Assembly (NCBI GenBank): GCA_944392815.1
Contig: CALXXY010000003.1
Coordinates: forward strand, 32,001 to 96,000
Source of the DNA: an uncultured Alphaproteobacteria bacterium
GTDB taxonomy: Bacteria; Pseudomonadota; Alphaproteobacteria; Rs-D84
Length of the DNA stretch: 64,000 nt
Direction: 5' to 3'
A program made the position numbers and the translations under genes. The number at the start of each line of letters is the position of its first letter. Position 1 is the first letter of the stretch. Positions 2,959 through 60,327 of this stretch are shown here, piece after piece. The notes under the pieces are model-generated. The model was not told the DNA's origin and searched no databases. It was given only the letters and a program-made list of their open reading frames with translations.

Positions 2959-3507
2959 TTATCTGCTGCCGCGTCCCAACGCCCGCAACGAATTAACAAA
3001 AACCACATAGCCCAAATCAATACCCAACCGTCGCGCAAAAGTATACGCACGTTTAAATTCGAAATCGCTGCTGTTATAATCGCCCACTTTGTCATACGGA
3101 ATTTTTAAATATTCCCCATCATCACCCACAAATTGGTCAAAGGTCAAATCCAGTGGTTCGCCCGTAAATTTATTTTCCAACCACACATGATCCCACTTGT
3201 CCCCGACTATCAGTTTTAATCGCCAAACTTCGTCCCCATCTGGCATACGAAATAAATGATTCCACGTATAACTGGCAATACCACAAAAACCAGCAGAATA
3301 CGCCCCATGCGCAACACGGGCCTGTTCATATTTTTGTTGTAAAACCCGCCTGCGCAAACGCGTGTCACAAAACGCCCTGCGGAAATCGCGCACCATACAC
3401 GACATATCATATTTCGGATTAAAATCGGACGGCAAATTTAACCATTGTGATTGTACCTGGTGCACCAATGATTCAGTGGCCTCATTATACCGCATCATAT
3501 CAACCAT
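2959..3507 (-). CDS. Hypothetical protein with putative Cys-His-Asp triad
   Basis: GFCGIAS...WDHVWLE...PLDLTFDQF; starts 1 nt after tsaD stop. Confidence 0.65.
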   Translation of the reverse strand: MVDMMRYNEATESLVHQVQSQWLNLPSDFNPKYDMSCMVRDFRRAFCDTRLRRRVLQQKYEQARVAHGAYSAGFCGIASYTWNHLFRMPDGDEVWRLKLIVGDKWDHVWLENKFTGEPLDLTFDQFVGDDGEYLKIPYDKVGDYNSSDFEFKRAYTFARRLGIDLGYVVFVNSLRALGRGSR

Positions 3508-11084: not shown

Positions 11085-12299
11085 TTACCGCCGGTTTACA
11101 GCACGCAAAATTGGATTCAGCATTACAACCAATACAAATGCCAACGCAAAAAACAAAATAATTGTTGGAACGATACCGAAACTATCCAGTATTGGCTTTA
11201 ACAAAATCATTATTACGCCAGACACCCCACTTTTTATCATAGAACCAATTGAAATAACCGTGCCACGTTCATGCGATTCCGTGCGTTCATGAATAAAACC
11301 ATTAAACACTAATTTTACCAACGCCTGGACGGCCGGCACAATCGCCATAATCACACACAACACATAAACAATTGGCATATTACCCGCGGCCCAAATTGCG
11401 CCCAACGCTGCCCCAAAACCAGCAAAAATCCATATTACTGACAACCACAGGGTTTTATTATTGCCCAACCGTTCAATTGATTTATACGCAAATTTATAAC
11501 ACAACATGCGCGCCACATTGTTTATCCCCAGAATCACACCAAACAACGCCACCGGCACCAACGCCGCAACCATAACGGGCTGCATCAACCACAGCACAAT
11601 TGTAGCAAATGTCCCATACAATGCCGAATACAGCATCAGTTTTGGCAACTCTGGGTGCCGGGCCGTCATACTAACAATTTTCAAACAATCCCGCAGCGGG
11701 CTGGATTCTGGGGCAACCTTGCGTTTTACTTCTGTTATTTCTGGGATAAAGAACAGTATTAAAAACATAATCAATGCCGCCATAGCATTTACCGCCAAAA
11801 CTAAATTTTGACTGATTGCGAATAACGCGCCACCAATCAAAGTTCCAACCATTGTCCCAGCTGTGCCAATCGTATTAACTGAACCATTTTCGCGCAAATA
11901 CGTCTTTTCTGCACCATCGCGTTTCAGCAAATCATATATGTATGCTTCTTTGGTTCCGCTGAACAGCGCAGTTGCCACCCCCAATCCGGACTCGCACAAC
12001 AGCACCGCCCAAAAACCAGTTCCAAACAATAATATTGAAAAAGACAAAAACGTCGCAAGCGCGCCCAAAATCAATATTTTCCGCCGCGAAAAAACATCTG
12101 CCAAATACCCACTGGGGATTTCAAACAAAAACGCGACAATGCGAAATATTCCCTGAATCATAAAAAAATCGCCCAATCCGACCCCTTTGTTTTGATAAAT
12201 CAAAACGATAACAGGCAATATTGGAACAAACAGATGGAAAAATTCGGCAACCTTCAAAATCCATAACGCGGTTTTCGTTTCCCGCGACAACATAGACAT
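11085..12299 (-). CDS. MFS transporter
   Basis: About 12 hydrophobic segments; EIPSGYLADVFSRRK motif A; ALFSGTKEAYIYD. Confidence 0.9.
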   Translation of the reverse strand: MSMLSRETKTALWILKVAEFFHLFVPILPVIVLIYQNKGVGLGDFFMIQGIFRIVAFLFEIPSGYLADVFSRRKILILGALATFLSFSILLFGTGFWAVLLCESGLGVATALFSGTKEAYIYDLLKRDGAEKTYLRENGSVNTIGTAGTMVGTLIGGALFAISQNLVLAVNAMAALIMFLILFFIPEITEVKRKVAPESSPLRDCLKIVSMTARHPELPKLMLYSALYGTFATIVLWLMQPVMVAALVPVALFGVILGINNVARMLCYKFAYKSIERLGNNKTLWLSVIWIFAGFGAALGAIWAAGNMPIVYVLCVIMAIVPAVQALVKLVFNGFIHERTESHERGTVISIGSMIKSGVSGVIMILLKPILDSFGIVPTIILFFALAFVLVVMLNPILRAVNRR

Positions 12300-12320
12300 T
12301 TTGTGGTCTTTTTATTTTTA

Positions 12321-46119: not shown

Positions 46120-48837
46120 ATGAGAAGGATTCTGTATTTTATCACTACTTTTGCCCTGTGCATTGGCATTGCCAACGCGGCTGTGCGTGATGAAAATGCA
46201 ACGAATCGCAATACGAATAATGCCAATCAAACAGTTTCGCGCACGGCGTCCACACGCGCCGTCGCTGGGCGCAGTGCAACTGTGCGCACGGCCACGCCAA
46301 CTGTATCGCGCACAGCATCACAAAATAACGCCACGCGAACCACCGCCGCGCGCCCATCGTCATCGTCAAATCGCCCAAATGCCACGCGCACGTCGGTGGC
46401 CCGCACGGGCAACAACACGACCCGCGCGGCAACTGCGCGCGCCGCAGCGCCGGTTGTATCACGCGCCGCCACAAACACCAGTGCAATGTCCGAAACACGC
46501 ACCGGCGCAGAATACGAGCAATGCAAAAGTGCATATTTTACATGCATGGATCAATTTTGCGAATTAAAAAACGACGACTATCGTCGCTGTTCTTGCAGTA
46601 ATCGCGTGTTTGATTTAACCGAAATCCGCGACACCATGCAGGACGCCAGCGACCAATTAACCGTATTCAATGAAAATCTGAACGTTGTCGGCATGACCGC
46701 GGCCCAGGCAACCGCCATGAAAACCGCGACCGAGGGCGAAAATGCCCTGACGTCGGACACATCTGCGTCAAAACAATTATTACAGGCCATCATGAATTCA
46801 ATACGCGGTGGCGACACGTCTGTTGGTGGCAAATATTCCGATTTGAACAGCATAACATTATCGTTTGACACAGTAAACGCGTTTGGCACTGCGGACGCGG
46901 GTCAAATCATCGCGTCATACAACGGCCAAAATCTGTACGACGCCGTATACCCCCAATGTCGCGAGGCCGTACGCGCCGACTGTACCGACGCACAATTACA
47001 GCGCGCAATCACCGCATATTTAATGGCAATTGAACAGGACTGCAACAGTGTCGAAACAGCAATAGAAAACAAGCAAAAGGAAATAAAATCTGCTATCCGC
47101 GAAAGCAGCGCTATGTTGGATTTGGCCCGCGTAGAAAATCGCCAGGCGCACAATTCCAGCGACATGGCAACATGCCTGACCAATGTTGAAAACGCCATTT
47201 TAAGCGAGGAAGTTTGTGGTTCCAATTACCACAAATGCCTGGACAATGGCGAATTTATCGATGTTTCCACAGGCGCCCCAATCGCAGGCGTGGAAAATTT
47301 TTACGAATTGGGAAATCTGCTGAAATTTGCAGACGGTGTTGACGCCGCCGATCAAAAATTATCGCAAATCACATACAACAGGACTTTCGTTAAAAATTTT
47401 GAAAATCGCGTTAAAAAATTCGCGGAACCAGAATTGGACAAATGTACGGAAATTGCCGACGTTGTTTGGTCGGAATACCTGGACAAAGCCATGCTGGACA
47501 TATACTATGCCCAACAATCCAAAGTATCCGAAATCAAACAGGGTTGCTTTGATTTTGTATCTGCCTGCTATATGAACAGCGAGGCCGCCATCACAGACGC
47601 CATGGCATCACTGACCGGCGACGACACGGTTATTTTACAACCGGACAGCGTCACATTAACAACAGAAATGTGCCGTGATTATATTAATTCGTGCAACATG
47701 ATGTTCTATGACCAAACTGGCGGCCAAAACATCGTGACGGACTATATCAACAACCGCCAGGAAACAGACACATTGACCGCATGTCGCGCAGTTGTAAAAC
47801 AGTGCTTTGATAACTTTGGCGGATCCGGATATGAAAACTTCTATTATCCATACAGCGGCCTGTTCAAAACGGGCGAGGCCCTGGACTGGTTCACCCTGTA
47901 TGAATATGACGAAAATGGCAACCCCAACACGGACAAACCGGTATCAAAATGCGCCCAGCAATTACAGGAAATCGCGTCATGCAATACCCCCGAAATGATG
48001 GAGAACGCCTTTGGTGGATTCGACCGCATAATCGCCGGCCGCGGGACATTCGGCGACGAAACTGTATTCTATTTTGATAAAAACGGCCAATATAATGGCG
48101 AACCACTCGAAGATCATGCCAACATAACATACAACCATAAAAAATATGGACTGCTGGACGATGTGGCAACAGAAAACATAACCCCGATAGATATCGCAAC
48201 AAACCAGGCCAGCGGTAATAAAATCAATGCGCGCGTGCTGTCGCACCACGAACCACGCCCAACTGGGGTTGCCACCGAAATTTATAACCAGATTGTCGAC
48301 ACACTGGCCACCCAGTGCACCAACCTGCAGGGCCGTTTTGTTGAACTGCAATTCATCAAACAAGGTTTGTACCAGGAATCCAATCTGTGCCTGTCCAACT
48401 TTGAAGGTTCAATTGAATACGGTGGTAGTGGTGGTAATGGGGCCGGAACAGCCGAAACCCCGAACCTGGTCTATTTGTACGGCATTGGCCAAGGCGAAGA
48501 TATGTGCCCGCGGCAATATAATCTGGACGTGGATACCCAATCATGGGGCGCGTGCCTGTGCTGGGAAAATGGCGGTCGACGCAGCAAATGGGGCAAAAGC
48601 CCGAAATGCATCGCCGGTGTTCCGACCAGCACTGCAATGAACGATGCGAAATGCACGTCGTCCACCGTCCCCACATCAACCAGCGCCACCGCGCCAGAAA
48701 ACTGGTGCACACTGGATTTAAACTCGTCCCGCCAGGTATGCCCATATGATTCTACCGAAGAAGAGGGCATGTGCAAAACACCTGAAACATCTGCTGGGGA
48801 ACTGCTGCTGCATAATCTGCCCGACGCGGTCATATAA
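46120..48837 (+). CDS. Large secreted Cys-rich hypothetical protein
   Basis: 905 aa; signal peptide; Arg/Thr/Ala-rich disordered N-terminus, then CxxxYxxCMDxFC.......RCSCS and many further Cys. Confidence 0.88.
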   Translation: MRRILYFITTFALCIGIANAAVRDENATNRNTNNANQTVSRTASTRAVAGRSATVRTATPTVSRTASQNNATRTTAARPSSSSNRPNATRTSVARTGNNTTRAATARAAAPVVSRAATNTSAMSETRTGAEYEQCKSAYFTCMDQFCELKNDDYRRCSCSNRVFDLTEIRDTMQDASDQLTVFNENLNVVGMTAAQATAMKTATEGENALTSDTSASKQLLQAIMNSIRGGDTSVGGKYSDLNSITLSFDTVNAFGTADAGQIIASYNGQNLYDAVYPQCREAVRADCTDAQLQRAITAYLMAIEQDCNSVETAIENKQKEIKSAIRESSAMLDLARVENRQAHNSSDMATCLTNVENAILSEEVCGSNYHKCLDNGEFIDVSTGAPIAGVENFYELGNLLKFADGVDAADQKLSQITYNRTFVKNFENRVKKFAEPELDKCTEIADVVWSEYLDKAMLDIYYAQQSKVSEIKQGCFDFVSACYMNSEAAITDAMASLTGDDTVILQPDSVTLTTEMCRDYINSCNMMFYDQTGGQNIVTDYINNRQETDTLTACRAVVKQCFDNFGGSGYENFYYPYSGLFKTGEALDWFTLYEYDENGNPNTDKPVSKCAQQLQEIASCNTPEMMENAFGGFDRIIAGRGTFGDETVFYFDKNGQYNGEPLEDHANITYNHKKYGLLDDVATENITPIDIATNQASGNKINARVLSHHEPRPTGVATEIYNQIVDTLATQCTNLQGRFVELQFIKQGLYQESNLCLSNFEGSIEYGGSGGNGAGTAETPNLVYLYGIGQGEDMCPRQYNLDVDTQSWGACLCWENGGRRSKWGKSPKCIAGVPTSTAMNDAKCTSSTVPTSTSATAPENWCTLDLNSSRQVCPYDSTEEEGMCKTPETSAGELLLHNLPDAVI

Positions 48838-57236: not shown

Positions 57237-57953
57237 TTATTGCGCCACCCGGCGCAAAAGTGCCAAATATTCCACATTGCCACTGCCGCCGCGAATGGGC
57301 GATTCAATAATACCAGATTGTTTATAGCCATTTTTTTCAAAGTTTTGTACAACGTTTTGAATGGCCGCGGCACGTTCAGATTCACTTTTAATCACACCAT
57401 GCGCACGGGCGGCAACATTGCGGGAAACCTCGAACTGGGGCTTAATCAGGGCGATAATTTGCGGCGCATTCCATGCGACCAGCGCATCGCTGATGTTGGT
57501 TAATGAAATAAACGACACATCAACCACAATCAAATCAACCGACCGCATGGGGGACAACGACCGAATATCCGTCTGTTCCAGCGCGGTCACACGCGCATCA
57601 TTTTTTAACGAATCCACCAATTGATTTGTGCCGACATCAACCGCAATCACATGCGCCGCCCCGCGCGATAACAGCGTTTCTGTAAAACCACCAGTACTGG
57701 CACCAACATCCAAACAAACATACCCCGCGGGATTCACCCCAAACGCGTCCAGCGCAGCCCCCAATTTCAAACTGCCGCGCCCAGTGGAATAGGGCAGCGC
57801 CCCGCCAACAATCACATCTGTGTCGGCAACGTCCATACTCGGCTTTTGCGCACGCGCCCCATTCACAGTCACCAGACCCGATTTAATCGCCGCCGCCGCG
57901 CGCGCCCGCGTGGAATACAGATTTCGTGAAACCAGTGCGATATCTAATCTCAT
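57237..57953 (-). CDS. tlyA: TlyA-family rRNA 2'-O-methyltransferase
   Basis: RLD S4 domain, LDVGASTGGFT, AVDVG..QL, DVSFISL, LIKPQFE, GNVEY. Confidence 0.93.
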   Translation of the reverse strand: MRLDIALVSRNLYSTRARAAAAIKSGLVTVNGARAQKPSMDVADTDVIVGGALPYSTGRGSLKLGAALDAFGVNPAGYVCLDVGASTGGFTETLLSRGAAHVIAVDVGTNQLVDSLKNDARVTALEQTDIRSLSPMRSVDLIVVDVSFISLTNISDALVAWNAPQIIALIKPQFEVSRNVAARAHGVIKSESERAAAIQNVVQNFEKNGYKQSGIIESPIRGGSGNVEYLALLRRVAQ

Positions 57954-57997
57954 ACCGAAAATTGTACCGCAGCATTCACGTAAAATCAAATAAGTCC

Positions 57998-58026
57998 TTG
58001 CACCACCCGCGCACACGCGATAATAT
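57998..58026 (+). promoter_or_regulatory. Putative promoter of the C4-like RNA / Cys-rich gene pair
   Basis: TTGCAC-N17-TAATAT, divergent from the tlyA promoter. Confidence 0.55.
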
Positions 58027-58115
58027 AACAAATGTCGGTGGGTGTTCCACCGATGGGGTGTCGAAACCCGTTAAACTAGCGTCAGGCAACTGATGAATTA
58101 AACTCCGATCTAGCA

Positions 58116-58187
58116 TGGTTGGAGGGCTTGCGAATATATTGAATAAGCAGCACTATTCTAGTTTATAGTTTCGAACCTCCAACCACC
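58116..58187 (+). ncRNA. C4 antisense RNA-like element
   Basis: Closing stem TGGTTGGAGG/CCTCCAACCA; internal CTAGTTT and GTTTCGA are exact reverse complements of upstream AAACTAG (58073-79) and TCGAAAC (58061-67); layout resembles phage C4 RNAs. Confidence 0.65.
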
Positions 58188-58245
58188 TGAATTTTTCTGG
58201 TGGTTTTTTCATTATCAAAACAAATGAAACAAGGGAGGTTGCATA

Positions 58246-58689
58246 ATGAAAAAACATTTAATACTGGTCGGGGTGTTTTCCGTGGCCATAGTCCAATCAC
58301 AACCCGCGATGGCCGTGACGAAGTGCGTGGCGTTAAACAGCCGCAGTACAACGTGTGCATATGCAAGTTCAGAATTCGATGTTACTGATTGGACAACAAC
58401 ATGCACTACAAACGATGTAAGTATTCCGATAAAAGGCATAGGGATATGTGCTAATGCAAGTGCTAGCGCCCTAGGAACAACAACAACACAACTAGACCTG
58501 TCGTCCACTGCTGATGATAACAAATATTGTTGGTGCCGTATGATAAGTCCTGCTGTGTCGCGCTGGGTGTATGTCAACTCAACCCCGACAGCGGGCGATT
58601 GTCACCATAGGTGCGCATCATACTGCGCGACGAATGTTCGTGATACACCGCTCTTTCGGCGTGGAATGTTCGGCTCGCTTTCTGACTAA
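58246..58689 (+). CDS. Secreted Cys-rich protein, gene A
   Basis: GGAGG RBS; signal peptide ending AMA; 9 Cys in mature part incl. YCWCRM and CxxxCxxxC. Confidence 0.85.
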   Translation: MKKHLILVGVFSVAIVQSQPAMAVTKCVALNSRSTTCAYASSEFDVTDWTTTCTTNDVSIPIKGIGICANASASALGTTTTQLDLSSTADDNKYCWCRMISPAVSRWVYVNSTPTAGDCHHRCASYCATNVRDTPLFRRGMFGSLSD

Positions 58690-58701
58690 TGGGGGCGCAC
58701 A

Positions 58702-59028
58702 ATGAAAAGAATACTGATTTTATTTGCATTATGTTGTCCGGTATCTGCGATGGCCCTGGATATAGAAGGTGGAGTAGTCGTTGGTCCGCCAGTGCAGGCA
58801 ATAAGCACCCCATCAACTTCATGCCCGTCGGGTTATACTGCGGTGGTCGAGGAACATATGGATATTGCGAACAGTTCATGCCCATCGGGCTATACGTCCG
58901 CCGGCACAGCAACCAGTTGTATCGCGTCCAACCCCGGCGGGTCGTGTATTATGTACGCCCCGGTGGGTGTATCGTATACAGACACCACCGGCATATATGA
59001 ATTCGAACAACCCTGCGCAATGGAATAA
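58702..59028 (+). CDS. Secreted Cys-rich protein, gene B
   Basis: GGGGG RBS; signal peptide ending AMA; two SCPSGY repeats; paralogous fragment at 15987-16127. Confidence 0.85.
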   Translation: MKRILILFALCCPVSAMALDIEGGVVVGPPVQAISTPSTSCPSGYTAVVEEHMDIANSSCPSGYTSAGTATSCIASNPGGSCIMYAPVGVSYTDTTGIYEFEQPCAME

Positions 59029-59371: not shown

Positions 59372-60107
59372 GGGGGATAGTATGCCCGAATAACGTGTCG
59401 CACCCGAACGCCATCCGCCCCATTTTGACATATTTTTTTATTCAAAAATTACTTTAATTTATACATATATCTATATATTTTTAGTAAATTTTTAAATTTT
59501 ATACAATAATACACCATTTTAACATCAAAAATACACCAAAAATCGCTGAAAACCCGCAGAAATCCGCCATTTTTTGCATTTTTACGGTCAGAATAGGGCA
59601 CAAAAACCGATTTTTCCGCCCCCGACAATGACAAAAAACGGCCACACAGGCAACCAAAACCACAGAAACACATAAAAACACATTATATCACTAAATACAA
59701 AGTGTTATTTTATTTTTACAATAAATATCTTCAATAAATTTCACCAATAAATATGCGTAAAAACATTCACAAAAAAAATCCGAAACACGCCCGATACAAA
59801 AACACGCCGCACAAAACTGCACGAAACAAAAAAATCACCAAGTCAAAAACTAAACCCAAAATTCATCGTGCTATGACGCAGATGAATTTTATTTAACGTA
59901 CATTTATATGTTCATCTGCGCCACAGCGAACAAAAAATAATACCGACGACAGCGACAACACACATCACAGCAAATTTTTATCACGCGCGACTACACACAC
60001 ATTTTCACAAATTATAATATTTGACACGTCCGACACACAAAACCACAAAACAAATCTGCTTGTATTCATGTATCATTTTGGAACACACCAACACATCATA
60101 TTCTCGT

Positions 60108-60320
60108 TATATTACGTACAGTTTTTATGAGCCCCGGCGACCACATAATCCTCATATATTATGTATAGTTTTGGGGGCGCCAGCACTCCACATTCCTGTT
60201 ATATTATGTATAGTTTTATGAGCCCCAGCGGGCACATAATCCTCATATATTATGTATAGTTTTGGGAGCGCCAGCACTCCACATTCCCATTATATTATGT
60301 ATAGTTTTATGAGCCCCGGC
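60108..60320 (+). repeat. Tandem array (91-bp unit) carrying five copies of the dif XerD-side half-site TATATTATGTATAGTTTT
   Basis: Copies at 60108 (2 mismatches), 60155, 60200, 60246 and 60291; spacers alternate between two types. Confidence 0.9.
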
Positions 60321-60327
60321 GAATAAA

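Follow-up and report, generated by a model that had tools for sequence, protein, structure and literature searches.

A multi-copy C4-like terminator leader that probably decides transcription of exported-protein genes in an uncultured Rs-D84 alphaproteobacterium

The window analyzed here is a stretch of 64,000 nt from an uncultured bacterium of the class Alphaproteobacteria (GTDB lineage Rs-D84; assembly GCA_944392815.1, contig CALXXY010000003.1, positions 32,001 to 96,000 of the forward strand). Upstream of gene A, which encodes a Cys-rich protein with a signal peptide, the window carries a leader of ca. 180 nt that is a real and strongly supported structured RNA. This C4-like terminator leader probably decides whether the downstream genes are transcribed, and on balance we read it as a transcription attenuator of C4 architecture that gates accessory exported-protein genes. 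A first-pass annotation of the same DNA had interpreted the region as a complete phage C4-type antisense switch that silences gene A; it missed that the leader belongs to a multi-copy, lineage-specific family and that an upstream segment, here called segment 1, completes an attenuator. All coordinates below refer to the whole window, and the elements were checked by direct reading of positions 57700-58700. C1, C2, C3, and C4 followed by a position denote contigs of the window's own genome (927 kb). The features of the leader and of the two genes behind it are as follows.

57998-58026, + strand: promoter-like TTGCAC (57998-58003), 17-nt spacer, TAATAT (58021-26), read directly
58035-58053, + strand: P0, 5′ hairpin TCGGTGG/CCACCGA of 7 bp with loop GTGTT; forms in the isolated fold; counterpart of the first c4-a1b1 hairpin
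58055-58069, + strand: a1 hairpin GGGG-TGTCGAAA-CCC with a1 TCGAAAC (58061-67) in the loop, in the isolated fold
58072-58079, + strand: b1 (TAAACTAG; AAACTAG at 58073-79), pairing with b′ at 58158-65 by covariation
58080-58095, + strand: P3 hairpin with a GCAA loop; forms in whole-leader and isolated folds
58103-58110, + strand: segment 1, CTCCGATC, pairing with segment 2 (anti-antiterminator) and competing for the 5′ strand of the closing stem
58116-58187, + strand: C4-like domain, collinear with the RF01695 consensus on phage P1
58116-58125 and 58176-58185, + strand: closing stem TGGTTGGAGG / CCTCCAACCA, z = -3.84 in the isolated fold
58125-58153, + strand: P5 hairpin with a conserved 15-nt loop, GAATATATTGAATAA (58132-46)
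58153-58168, + strand: P6 hairpin displaying b′ CTAGTTT (58158-64)
58168-58174, + strand: a′ GTTTCGA, single-stranded, followed by the 3′ strand of the closing stem and then ACC
58181-58209, + strand: intrinsic terminator AACCACC..GGTGGTT plus T6, overlapping the 3′ strand of the closing stem; -11.1 kcal/mol and z = -3.62 in the isolated fold
58215-58233, + strand: a2 TCAAAAC (58215-21) and b2 AAACAAG (58227-33), matching a1 and b1 at 6/7 positions each, by coincidence in our judgment
58234-58689, + strand: Shine-Dalgarno (SD) sequence GGAGG (58234-38), ATG at 58246, and gene A (147 aa, signal peptide, Cys-rich)
58702-59028, + strand: gene B (108 aa, signal peptide, Cys-rich), also paired with gene A at C4:90193 and C1:75575

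The elements and positions listed by the first-pass annotation were all correct, and only the length of the closed RNA needed amendment, from 72 to 70 nt. The terminator-like sequence that it described as competing for the 3′ strand of this RNA lies at the given place, overlaps the closing stem, and is kept in the other copies; its loop is 11 nt. Folding of the 233-nt leader gave -76.8 kcal/mol (z = -5.45), a value equaled by none of 200 shuffles. In this minimum free energy (MFE) structure, the a1:a′ and b1:b′ helices both formed intramolecularly, giving a closed junction followed by the terminator.

BLAST and nhmmer searches with the leader core found 10 copies of the leader in the window's own genome. 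The covariance model R1 was built from nine of them; C1:75575, which has a 40-nt insertion, was omitted from both alignment A1 and R1. R1 gave 10 matches in the own genome at E ≤ 1.4e-20, plus weaker variants. Of 36 further genomes sampled from the genus, 34 had between 1 and 42 matches each (E ≤ 0.01). Elsewhere in the order the signal was patchier, with 2/4, 8/14, 0/1, 1/2, and 1/3 genomes positive in its other families. A motif scan of public genomes returned at least 119 stretches, whose titles name Candidatus Enterousia or uncultured Alphaproteobacteria gut metagenome-assembled genomes of animal and human origin. Enterousia, placed in the order Rs-D84, is described as a gut lineage with reduced genomes, and the portion of PMC12306168 available to us does not mention this RNA element for it. 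No description of the leader was found in the literature searched, and no family of Rfam 15 recognizes it. The other nine own copies have, at the promoter position, boxes of the type TTG(C/A)..-N16-18-(TG)nTAtAAT.

All 10 own copies are followed by an open reading frame (ORF) on the same strand, 19-66 nt downstream. These ORFs comprise three gene A-gene B pairs (that of the window included), a further gene A interrupted by the contig end, a truncated fragment of gene A, a PAP2 phosphatase, confirmed through its orthologue, two proteins of 222-244 aa with signal-peptide-like N-termini that we read as outer-membrane-protein-like (the one examined matched no Pfam family), and one 190-aa and one 53-aa protein without a signal peptide. 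Across the genus, 111 leaders were parsed by a regular expression that misses variant stems. A callable ORF followed 79 of them, of which 54 were signal-peptide-like by a crude rule, and the gap from terminator to start codon had a median of 27 nt (range 16-196, 79 leaders). The genus cargo includes Cys-rich secreted families, PAP2, a Listeria-Bacteroides-repeat protein, XRE-type helix-turn-helix (HTH) proteins, and a GT2 glycosyltransferase.

Covariation was measured in A2, an alignment of 40 leaders whose underlying model already includes the a:a′ and b:b′ pairings. The covariation score of A2 was 0.507, compared with 0.148 in shuffles (0/500 reached the observed value) and 0.06-0.08 in slid controls. 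Compensated changes were found at all 7 pairs of P0 (98.2% of cells paired), 5/7 pairs of a1:a′ (96.7%), 7/7 pairs of b1:b′ (8/8 in one count; 95.8%), 3-4 pairs of P5 (77-80%), 3/7 pairs of the terminator (AU 24 / GC 13 at one pair; 95.3%), and 1/4 pairs of P6, the hairpin that shows b′ (AU 20 / UA 19 at one pair; 100%). The GGG/CCC stem of the a1 hairpin was 85.1% paired with one of three pairs compensated, the closing stem (2:3) was 94.8% paired, and the segment 1:2 helix was 98.1% paired and nearly invariant. A hairpin at the P3 position was seen by eye in all copies; the value of only 35% paired in A2 comes from a region where P3 is misaligned. The 15-nt loop of P5 was the most conserved unpaired stretch of the 40 leaders. 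Since A2 already models a:a′ and b:b′, both pairings were retested without an alignment, anchored by regular expressions, in the 82 of 111 leaders that have a terminator and full flanks, 78 of them with distinct codes (that is, a/b sequences). In these 78 leaders, the longest upstream run complementary to a′ was 7.32 nt in the own leader versus 4.60 in other leaders, and that for b′ was 6.55 versus 4.39. Thus, the a1:a′ and b1:b′ complementarity pointed out in the first-pass annotation, which is exact in this copy, proved to be conserved and compensated in paralogues and orthologues, and the covariation check it had proposed for homologous leaders gave a strong signal for both pairings.

The P1/P7 immI layout proposed for the upstream part, a1-b1 followed by c4 carrying b′ and a′, agrees with the Rfam consensus structures on P1, with which the leader is collinear, element by element. 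The annotation of the P1 record covers a1, b1, c4, a2, and b2, gives mature c4 as 48343-48419, and calls a1/b1 'putative' targets only. As positive controls, the Rfam models placed c4-a1b1 (RF03163) at 48217-69 with 51.0 bits and C4 (RF01695) at 48337-422 with 68.8 bits; the gathering scores are 45 bits for RF01695, 46.7 bits for RF03163, and 53 bits for RF02221 (sRNA-Xcc1). The c4-a1b1 consensus on P1 consists of a 7-bp hairpin, a 4-bp hairpin with a1 in an 8-nt loop, and then b1. The leader likewise has a promoter, a 7-bp hairpin, a second short hairpin with a1 in an 8-nt loop, a layout that matches the second hairpin of RF03163 on P1, and b1 on its 3′ side, with a1 and b1 complementary to the downstream a′ and b′. 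In the C4 consensus on P1, the closing stem encloses two hairpins, the second of which has b′ in its loop, and then seven single-stranded nucleotides (a′); ACC follows the stem. The leader domain shows the same closing stem round two hairpins, with b′ in the second loop and a single-stranded a′ of ca. 7 nt, and it also starts with GGU and ends with ACC; in P1, too, a′/b′ are complementary to a1/b1. By our own reading, mature P1 c4 runs from GGUGGGG to CCUGCC-ACC, and the leader domain from GGUUGGAGG to CCUCCAACC-ACC. P1 C4 is excised by RNase P from a longer transcript and is ca. 77 nt long. The C4-like domain of the leader, AU|GGUUGGAGG...CCUCCAACC-ACC, would correspond to a processed RNA of 71 nt, and the 5′ GGW start and the 3′ ACC are both present. 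The c4-a1b1 family was described in PMC2864571, as far as the part available to us goes. By eye, ACGCCC just upstream of c4 in P1 can pair with GGGCGU of the 5′ strand of c4, and it is a possible counterpart of segment 1.

The leader also departs from P1/P7 immI in several respects. Its closing stem has 9-10 bp versus 17 in P1, and the first hairpin within that stem has the conserved 15-nt loop whereas that of P1 has UUCG. It has an additional segment 1, a terminator over the 3′ strand, and no conserved a2/b2; a′/b′ pair with a1/b1 of the same leader and not with the ribosome-binding region. The leader is chromosomal and multi-copy, its cargo is exported, HTH, and other proteins and not icd-ant, and, unlike C4, the locus in the window is not set among immunity genes of a phage or prophage (icd/ant, KilA-type cargo). 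Covariance-model matches were obtained in neither direction. The search with the Rfam C4 models that the first-pass annotation had suggested gave no C4, c4-a1b1, or other C4-clan match at any tested locus: none at the gathering threshold over the window, none at E ≤ 10 in 57900-58350 (451 nt), and none at permissive thresholds in 20 relatives' loci and four further own loci. Judging from its architecture, the leader appears to be built like and to work like a C4/a1b1 module, and it is not a member of those Rfam families.

The arrangement of competing segments points to transcription attenuation. Classical four-segment attenuators (trp-type, T-box, and PyrR-type) use mutually exclusive pairings 1:2, 2:3, and 3:4, of which 3:4 is the terminator before the gene. 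The leader has the same 1:2 / 2:3 / 3:4 set and a terminator before the gene, but it has no conserved leader peptide, tRNA-binding motif, or known protein-binding motif. A leader-peptide reading was considered and dropped: by eye, the 5′ NTG is ATG, GTG, TTG, CTG, ACG, CCG, or GCG among the copies. By sequence and covariation, segment 2 (GGTTGGAGG) has two possible partners, segment 1 (CTCCGATC) and segment 3 (CCTCCAACC), and segment 3 can in turn form a helix with either segment 2 or segment 4 (GGTGGTT plus T6). In the main family, segment 1 is CTCCGATC here and CTCCAAC in most copies, segment 2 is GGTTGGAG, segment 3 is CTCCAACC, and segment 4 is GGTGGTT plus a T-run. Segments 1, 2, and 3 change jointly in three variant copies (C1:75575, C2:26054, and C3:98627), in one of which they read CTCCTGACC/GGTCAGGAGG/CCTCCTGACC. 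The divergent full-length leader at C2:26054-26238 (+) has CCCGAC/GGTCGGGG/CCCCCGACC and is followed by a gene that starts with MTHTKSAPDATDARIGELIKQART; that at C3:98627-98854 (-) has CCTGAC/GGTCGGG/CCCGACC and is followed by a protein with a signal-peptide-like N-terminus. One relative's copy compensates 2:3 alone. As in intrinsic-terminator attenuators, the hairpin and U-run thus stand directly before the gene and the pairings are mutually exclusive, with a thin covariation base for the latter.

Nested-fold thermodynamics were calculated for 31 of the 40 A2 rows, those that the regular expression could segment, with pseudoknots excluded. Forcing 2:3 cost a mean of 14.5 kcal/mol with a1/b1 free and 4.8 kcal/mol with a1/b1 masked. 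In a transcript ending just past segment 3, 2:3 was part of the MFE structure in 0/31 leaders with a1/b1 free and in 20/31 with a1/b1 masked. In the mechanism we propose, the state combining 1:2, a1:a′, and b1:b′ would leave segment 3 free for the terminator, and genes A and B would therefore not be transcribed. In the other state, 2:3 would form the C4 fold and remove the terminator. Since the space after the terminator is too short for a separate promoter, genes A and B depend on read-through. The switch input we prefer is occupancy of a1/b1: without the cis pairing, the nascent RNA would prefer 2:3. One possible occupier would be a C4-like RNA with the same code that had been made earlier and processed in the manner of P1 C4, and the main alternative input would be a common factor binding the invariant 15-nt loop of P5.

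Several observations weigh against the attenuator reading. The consensus scan lists neither the leader promoter nor the leader terminator, so that the support for both is comparative; by our own reading, the -35 hexamer agrees with the consensus at 3/6 positions. Segments 1-3 are almost invariant in the main family, and hence the 1:2 and 2:3 pairings rest on few variant copies. The C4 fold may form with a′/b′ kissing a1/b1 in cis, which would uncouple a/b from termination; since the calculation cannot represent this pseudoknotted fold, the coupling between a/b and termination is something we infer. The downstream genes are heterogeneous and suggest no single physiological signal. No Rfam family reaches its threshold for any copy tested. 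An unfiltered R1 search of P1 47000-50000 yielded 24 weak matches (E ≤ 10), none of them over c4-a1b1 or C4; the best, with 16.4 bits, was terminator-like and on the opposite strand. Homology with C4 is therefore architectural and not demonstrated. Finally, coverage by four metatranscriptome contig sets is limited to conserved leader portions that belong to other copies or to relatives; the contigs run on unlike the window, and RNA starts, ends, strand, or level cannot be read from them.

A rival account, the one closest to the first-pass annotation, is that a processed C4-like RNA pairs with a2/b2 near the ribosome-binding site and blocks translation of gene A, as in P1 icd-ant. In this copy, the description holds: a2 and b2 each differ from a1 and b1 by one mismatch, which is central in both sites, and they abut GGAGG. 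Such a/b-like pairs (≤1 mismatch each, spacing 2-12) are uncommon, occurring in 3/758 SD-plus-ATG contexts of the genome, and 3/111 foreign codes find one in this untranslated region (UTR). At the family level, a′/b′ are not complementary to a2/b2 at the downstream ribosome-binding site. Among the 10 own copies, the downstream run for cognate versus non-cognate codes was 4.9 versus 4.27 for a′ and 3.9 versus 3.77 for b′. Among the 78 distinct leaders, it was 4.50 versus 4.32 for a′ (rank fraction 0.456; chance 0.5) and 4.13 versus 4.14 for b′ (rank fraction 0.503; chance 0.5). Ten leaders have a called ORF in the gene-A cluster; this set leaves out the window copy, for which the caller chose an overlapping 49-aa frame, and C1:75575, which the regular expression missed. 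A b2 with ≤1 mismatch was present in 0/10 of these gene-A-type leaders. An a2 with ≤1 mismatch was present in only five, with a-code TAAGAAC and TAAGAAT lying between the SD sequence and ATG; since all five share one code and one UTR, this a2 reflects shared ancestry and not covariation. Because the a2-b2-ribosome-binding-site arm is neither conserved nor covarying, the completeness of the switch and the silencing of gene A that had been claimed are unsupported, and we consider this account highly improbable. A private function of a2/b2 in this copy would concern a moderately unusual look-alike without comparative support.

A second rival also assumes an attenuator or a riboswitch-like leader but gives a1:a′ and b1:b′ a purely structural role, as the helices that close a multi-helix junction. 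The input would be a shared signal sensed by the P5 loop (GAATATATTGAATAA), which could be a protein or a small ligand, or else a tertiary interaction with the GNRA-like loop of P3. The conservation of the P5 loop, the highest among the unpaired stretches of the 40 leaders, fits such a role, as does the MFE structure, a closed junction followed by the terminator. Moreover, the degree of variation is similar in the a, b, P0, and P3 helices, as neutral compensated drift predicts, and many copies per genome before varied envelope genes suggest a common signal. On the other hand, the Rfam scans matched no riboswitch or leader family, and neither a ligand nor a protein emerged as a candidate. In sRNA-Xcc1, the loop of the counterpart hairpin is similar and likewise rich in AAUA, so that the P5 loop may characterize C4-like RNAs as a class rather than represent a new sensor. 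We regard input through the P5 loop as rather unlikely.

Within the attenuator reading with a1/b1 occupancy as input, a further step would be a self-addressed switch, in which C4-like RNA from read-through transcripts binds a1/b1 of nascent transcripts of its own locus only. Each leader (10-40 per genome) would then have a private a′/b′ code, and binding would prevent the cis lock and favor the antiterminator. If true, although we think it unlikely, this would constitute RNA-based positive feedback for each exported-protein gene, with genes going ON and OFF independently, cell by cell. It would provide phase-variation-like surface diversity without DNA change in a genome of ca. 0.9 Mb, and a function for the long-unexplained a1/b1 sites of P1-type C4 systems.

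The first-pass annotation had also raised the idea of an RNA address system if other cassettes carried different codes. They do, with 78 distinct codes in 82 parsed leaders, and this copy's a/b code is exact only in its own genome; an excess of trans targets was not found. In the corresponding rival account, the leaders yield small RNAs whose a′/b′ code targets other mRNAs, for this copy murJ. The diversity of codes and the existence of orphan modules with a1b1 only are in line with it, as are the multi-copy C4-like small RNAs with a variable a′ region that the accessible part of PMC5320573 reports in Acinetobacter baumannii. The start site of murJ reads TCGAAAC-T-ATG-AAACTAG (C1:21958-75, -) and contains the exact a1 and b1 7-mers. 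However, a+b sites across the genome did not exceed controls for the 10 codes: with real/reversed/reverse-complement codes, the counts were 10/10/5, 3/14/0, 18/11/13, 29/51/19, and 12/7/12 for codes 1-5 and 5/4/4, 10/26/8, 11/13/12, 4/15/8, and 4/26/5 for codes 6-10. Genomes with the murJ site lack the code, and the assembly contains no cognate partner for the orphan modules. As a conserved target, murJ was rejected: the exact site occurs in eight other genomes of 151, none with the code within two mismatches (three matches of this search are not among the matches listed). Most likely, the murJ match is a coincidence with the conserved murJ start of the genus, and targeting in trans seems very unlikely overall.

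The orphan modules are located at C1:91541-91725 (-), C1:71381-71420 (-), and C1:24862-25004 (+). They consist of a promoter, P0, an a1 hairpin, and b1 without the C4-like domain, and one ends in its own terminator, isrK-like. A search for a cognate C4-like partner in the assembly matched only their own antisense strand.

The leader might also have no regulatory role and be a repeated promoter and structured-RNA cassette, a mobile or duplicated insulator or stabilizer traveling with accessory genes. The high copy number, the accessory-type cargo, the occurrence on three IMG/VR contigs, and tandem or truncated copies (L156, and C2:2823, whose gene is truncated and which lacks a b1 match) are what such a cassette would show. 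Against this stand the strict orientation and spacing before ORFs, the purifying selection on unpaired loops, the compensated helices across species, and the terminator between promoter and gene, which would make a neutral cassette costly; we give this account very little credence.

Some individual copies deserve mention. On one of the three IMG/VR contigs, L169, a complete leader with its own a/b code (11960-12320) precedes a 316-aa exported protein beside phage-like genes; the adjoining ORFs are, by eye, DNA methyltransferase-, PLD-like nuclease-, and muramidase-like, and this locus may be a prophage or a mis-binned island. The copy at C2:2740-2918 (+) is the only own copy whose b′ has no b1 partner, has a truncated 64-aa gene-A fragment attached, and looks like a decaying duplicate of the copy at C4:288-465. 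L156 has tandem leaders at 3470 and 3670 (+) with an identical a′/b′ code, the first without a terminator. In four of the 20 relatives' loci (L021, L024, L025, and L033), a tRNA gene lies within ca. 200 nt upstream of the leader.

Gene A of the window has paralogues in its own genome; it matched no Pfam family at threshold, a DUF2673 match being sub-threshold only, and had no usable Atlas match. From their translations, the neighbors are leuS, a tlyA-like methyltransferase gene, mscL, aroK, and prfA. Tandem repeats with a period of 45 (4.7 copies) or 91 (2.4 copies, 90% matches) occupy 60100-60322, and this array sits in an ORF-poor stretch that separates gene B from mscL.

Three known systems other than P1 resemble the leader in part. 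sRNA-Xcc1 (RF02221) was the only Rfam model with full-length sub-threshold matches to leaders: 37.0 bits in a relative's copy (L034) and 23.4 bits in the own copy at C2:26054 (L172), against the gathering score of 53. At E ≤ 10, it matched one of 20 relatives' loci and not the window copy. Both have a C4-type architecture and lie upstream of, and codirectional with, a gene; in the available parts of two reports, sRNA-Xcc1 is an integron-cassette and phage small RNA upstream of symE or ORF6N genes, for which neither an a1b1 part nor a fused terminator is reported there (10.1101/2025.06.18.660453, 10.1101/2020.03.17.996009). The isrK model (RF01394) covers two a1b1-type hairpins and a terminator, and it matches P1 48230-48311 at 35 bits and only one leader copy, at 13.8 bits. 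According to the part of PMC4825925 at hand, IsrK of Salmonella Gifsy-1 is a terminated short RNA that acts in trans on the read-through mRNA of its own locus. A short form acting on the long form of the same locus is also the logic of our preferred input. In IsrK, the terminator follows a1b1 directly and orf45 is translationally activated, whereas the leader interposes a C4-like domain. The Group 1 RNAs of A. baumannii AB5075, as far as the available text of PMC5320573 describes them, are many chromosomal C4-type RNAs per genome with a variable a′ region and apparent processing of longer transcripts at the GGW motif. They share with the leader this multiplicity and variability, but they are recognized by the Rfam C4 motif, belong to another bacterial class, and are not described in that text as terminator-fused leaders with covarying a1/b1.

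The leader is a structured RNA family new to Rfam 15, with rich covariation and up to 42 matches in genomes of ca. 1 Mb. The conservation of a1/b1 but not of a2/b2 makes it a natural experiment on the role of a1/b1 in C4-type systems, and a caution that an a2/b2 look-alike in a single copy is insufficient to infer silencing of the P1 type. Its host is an uncultured gut lineage with few recognizable regulators, in which most of the variable exported and outer-membrane proteins would stand behind one type of RNA gate. Such a gate would provide a handle on surface control in reduced-genome bacteria.

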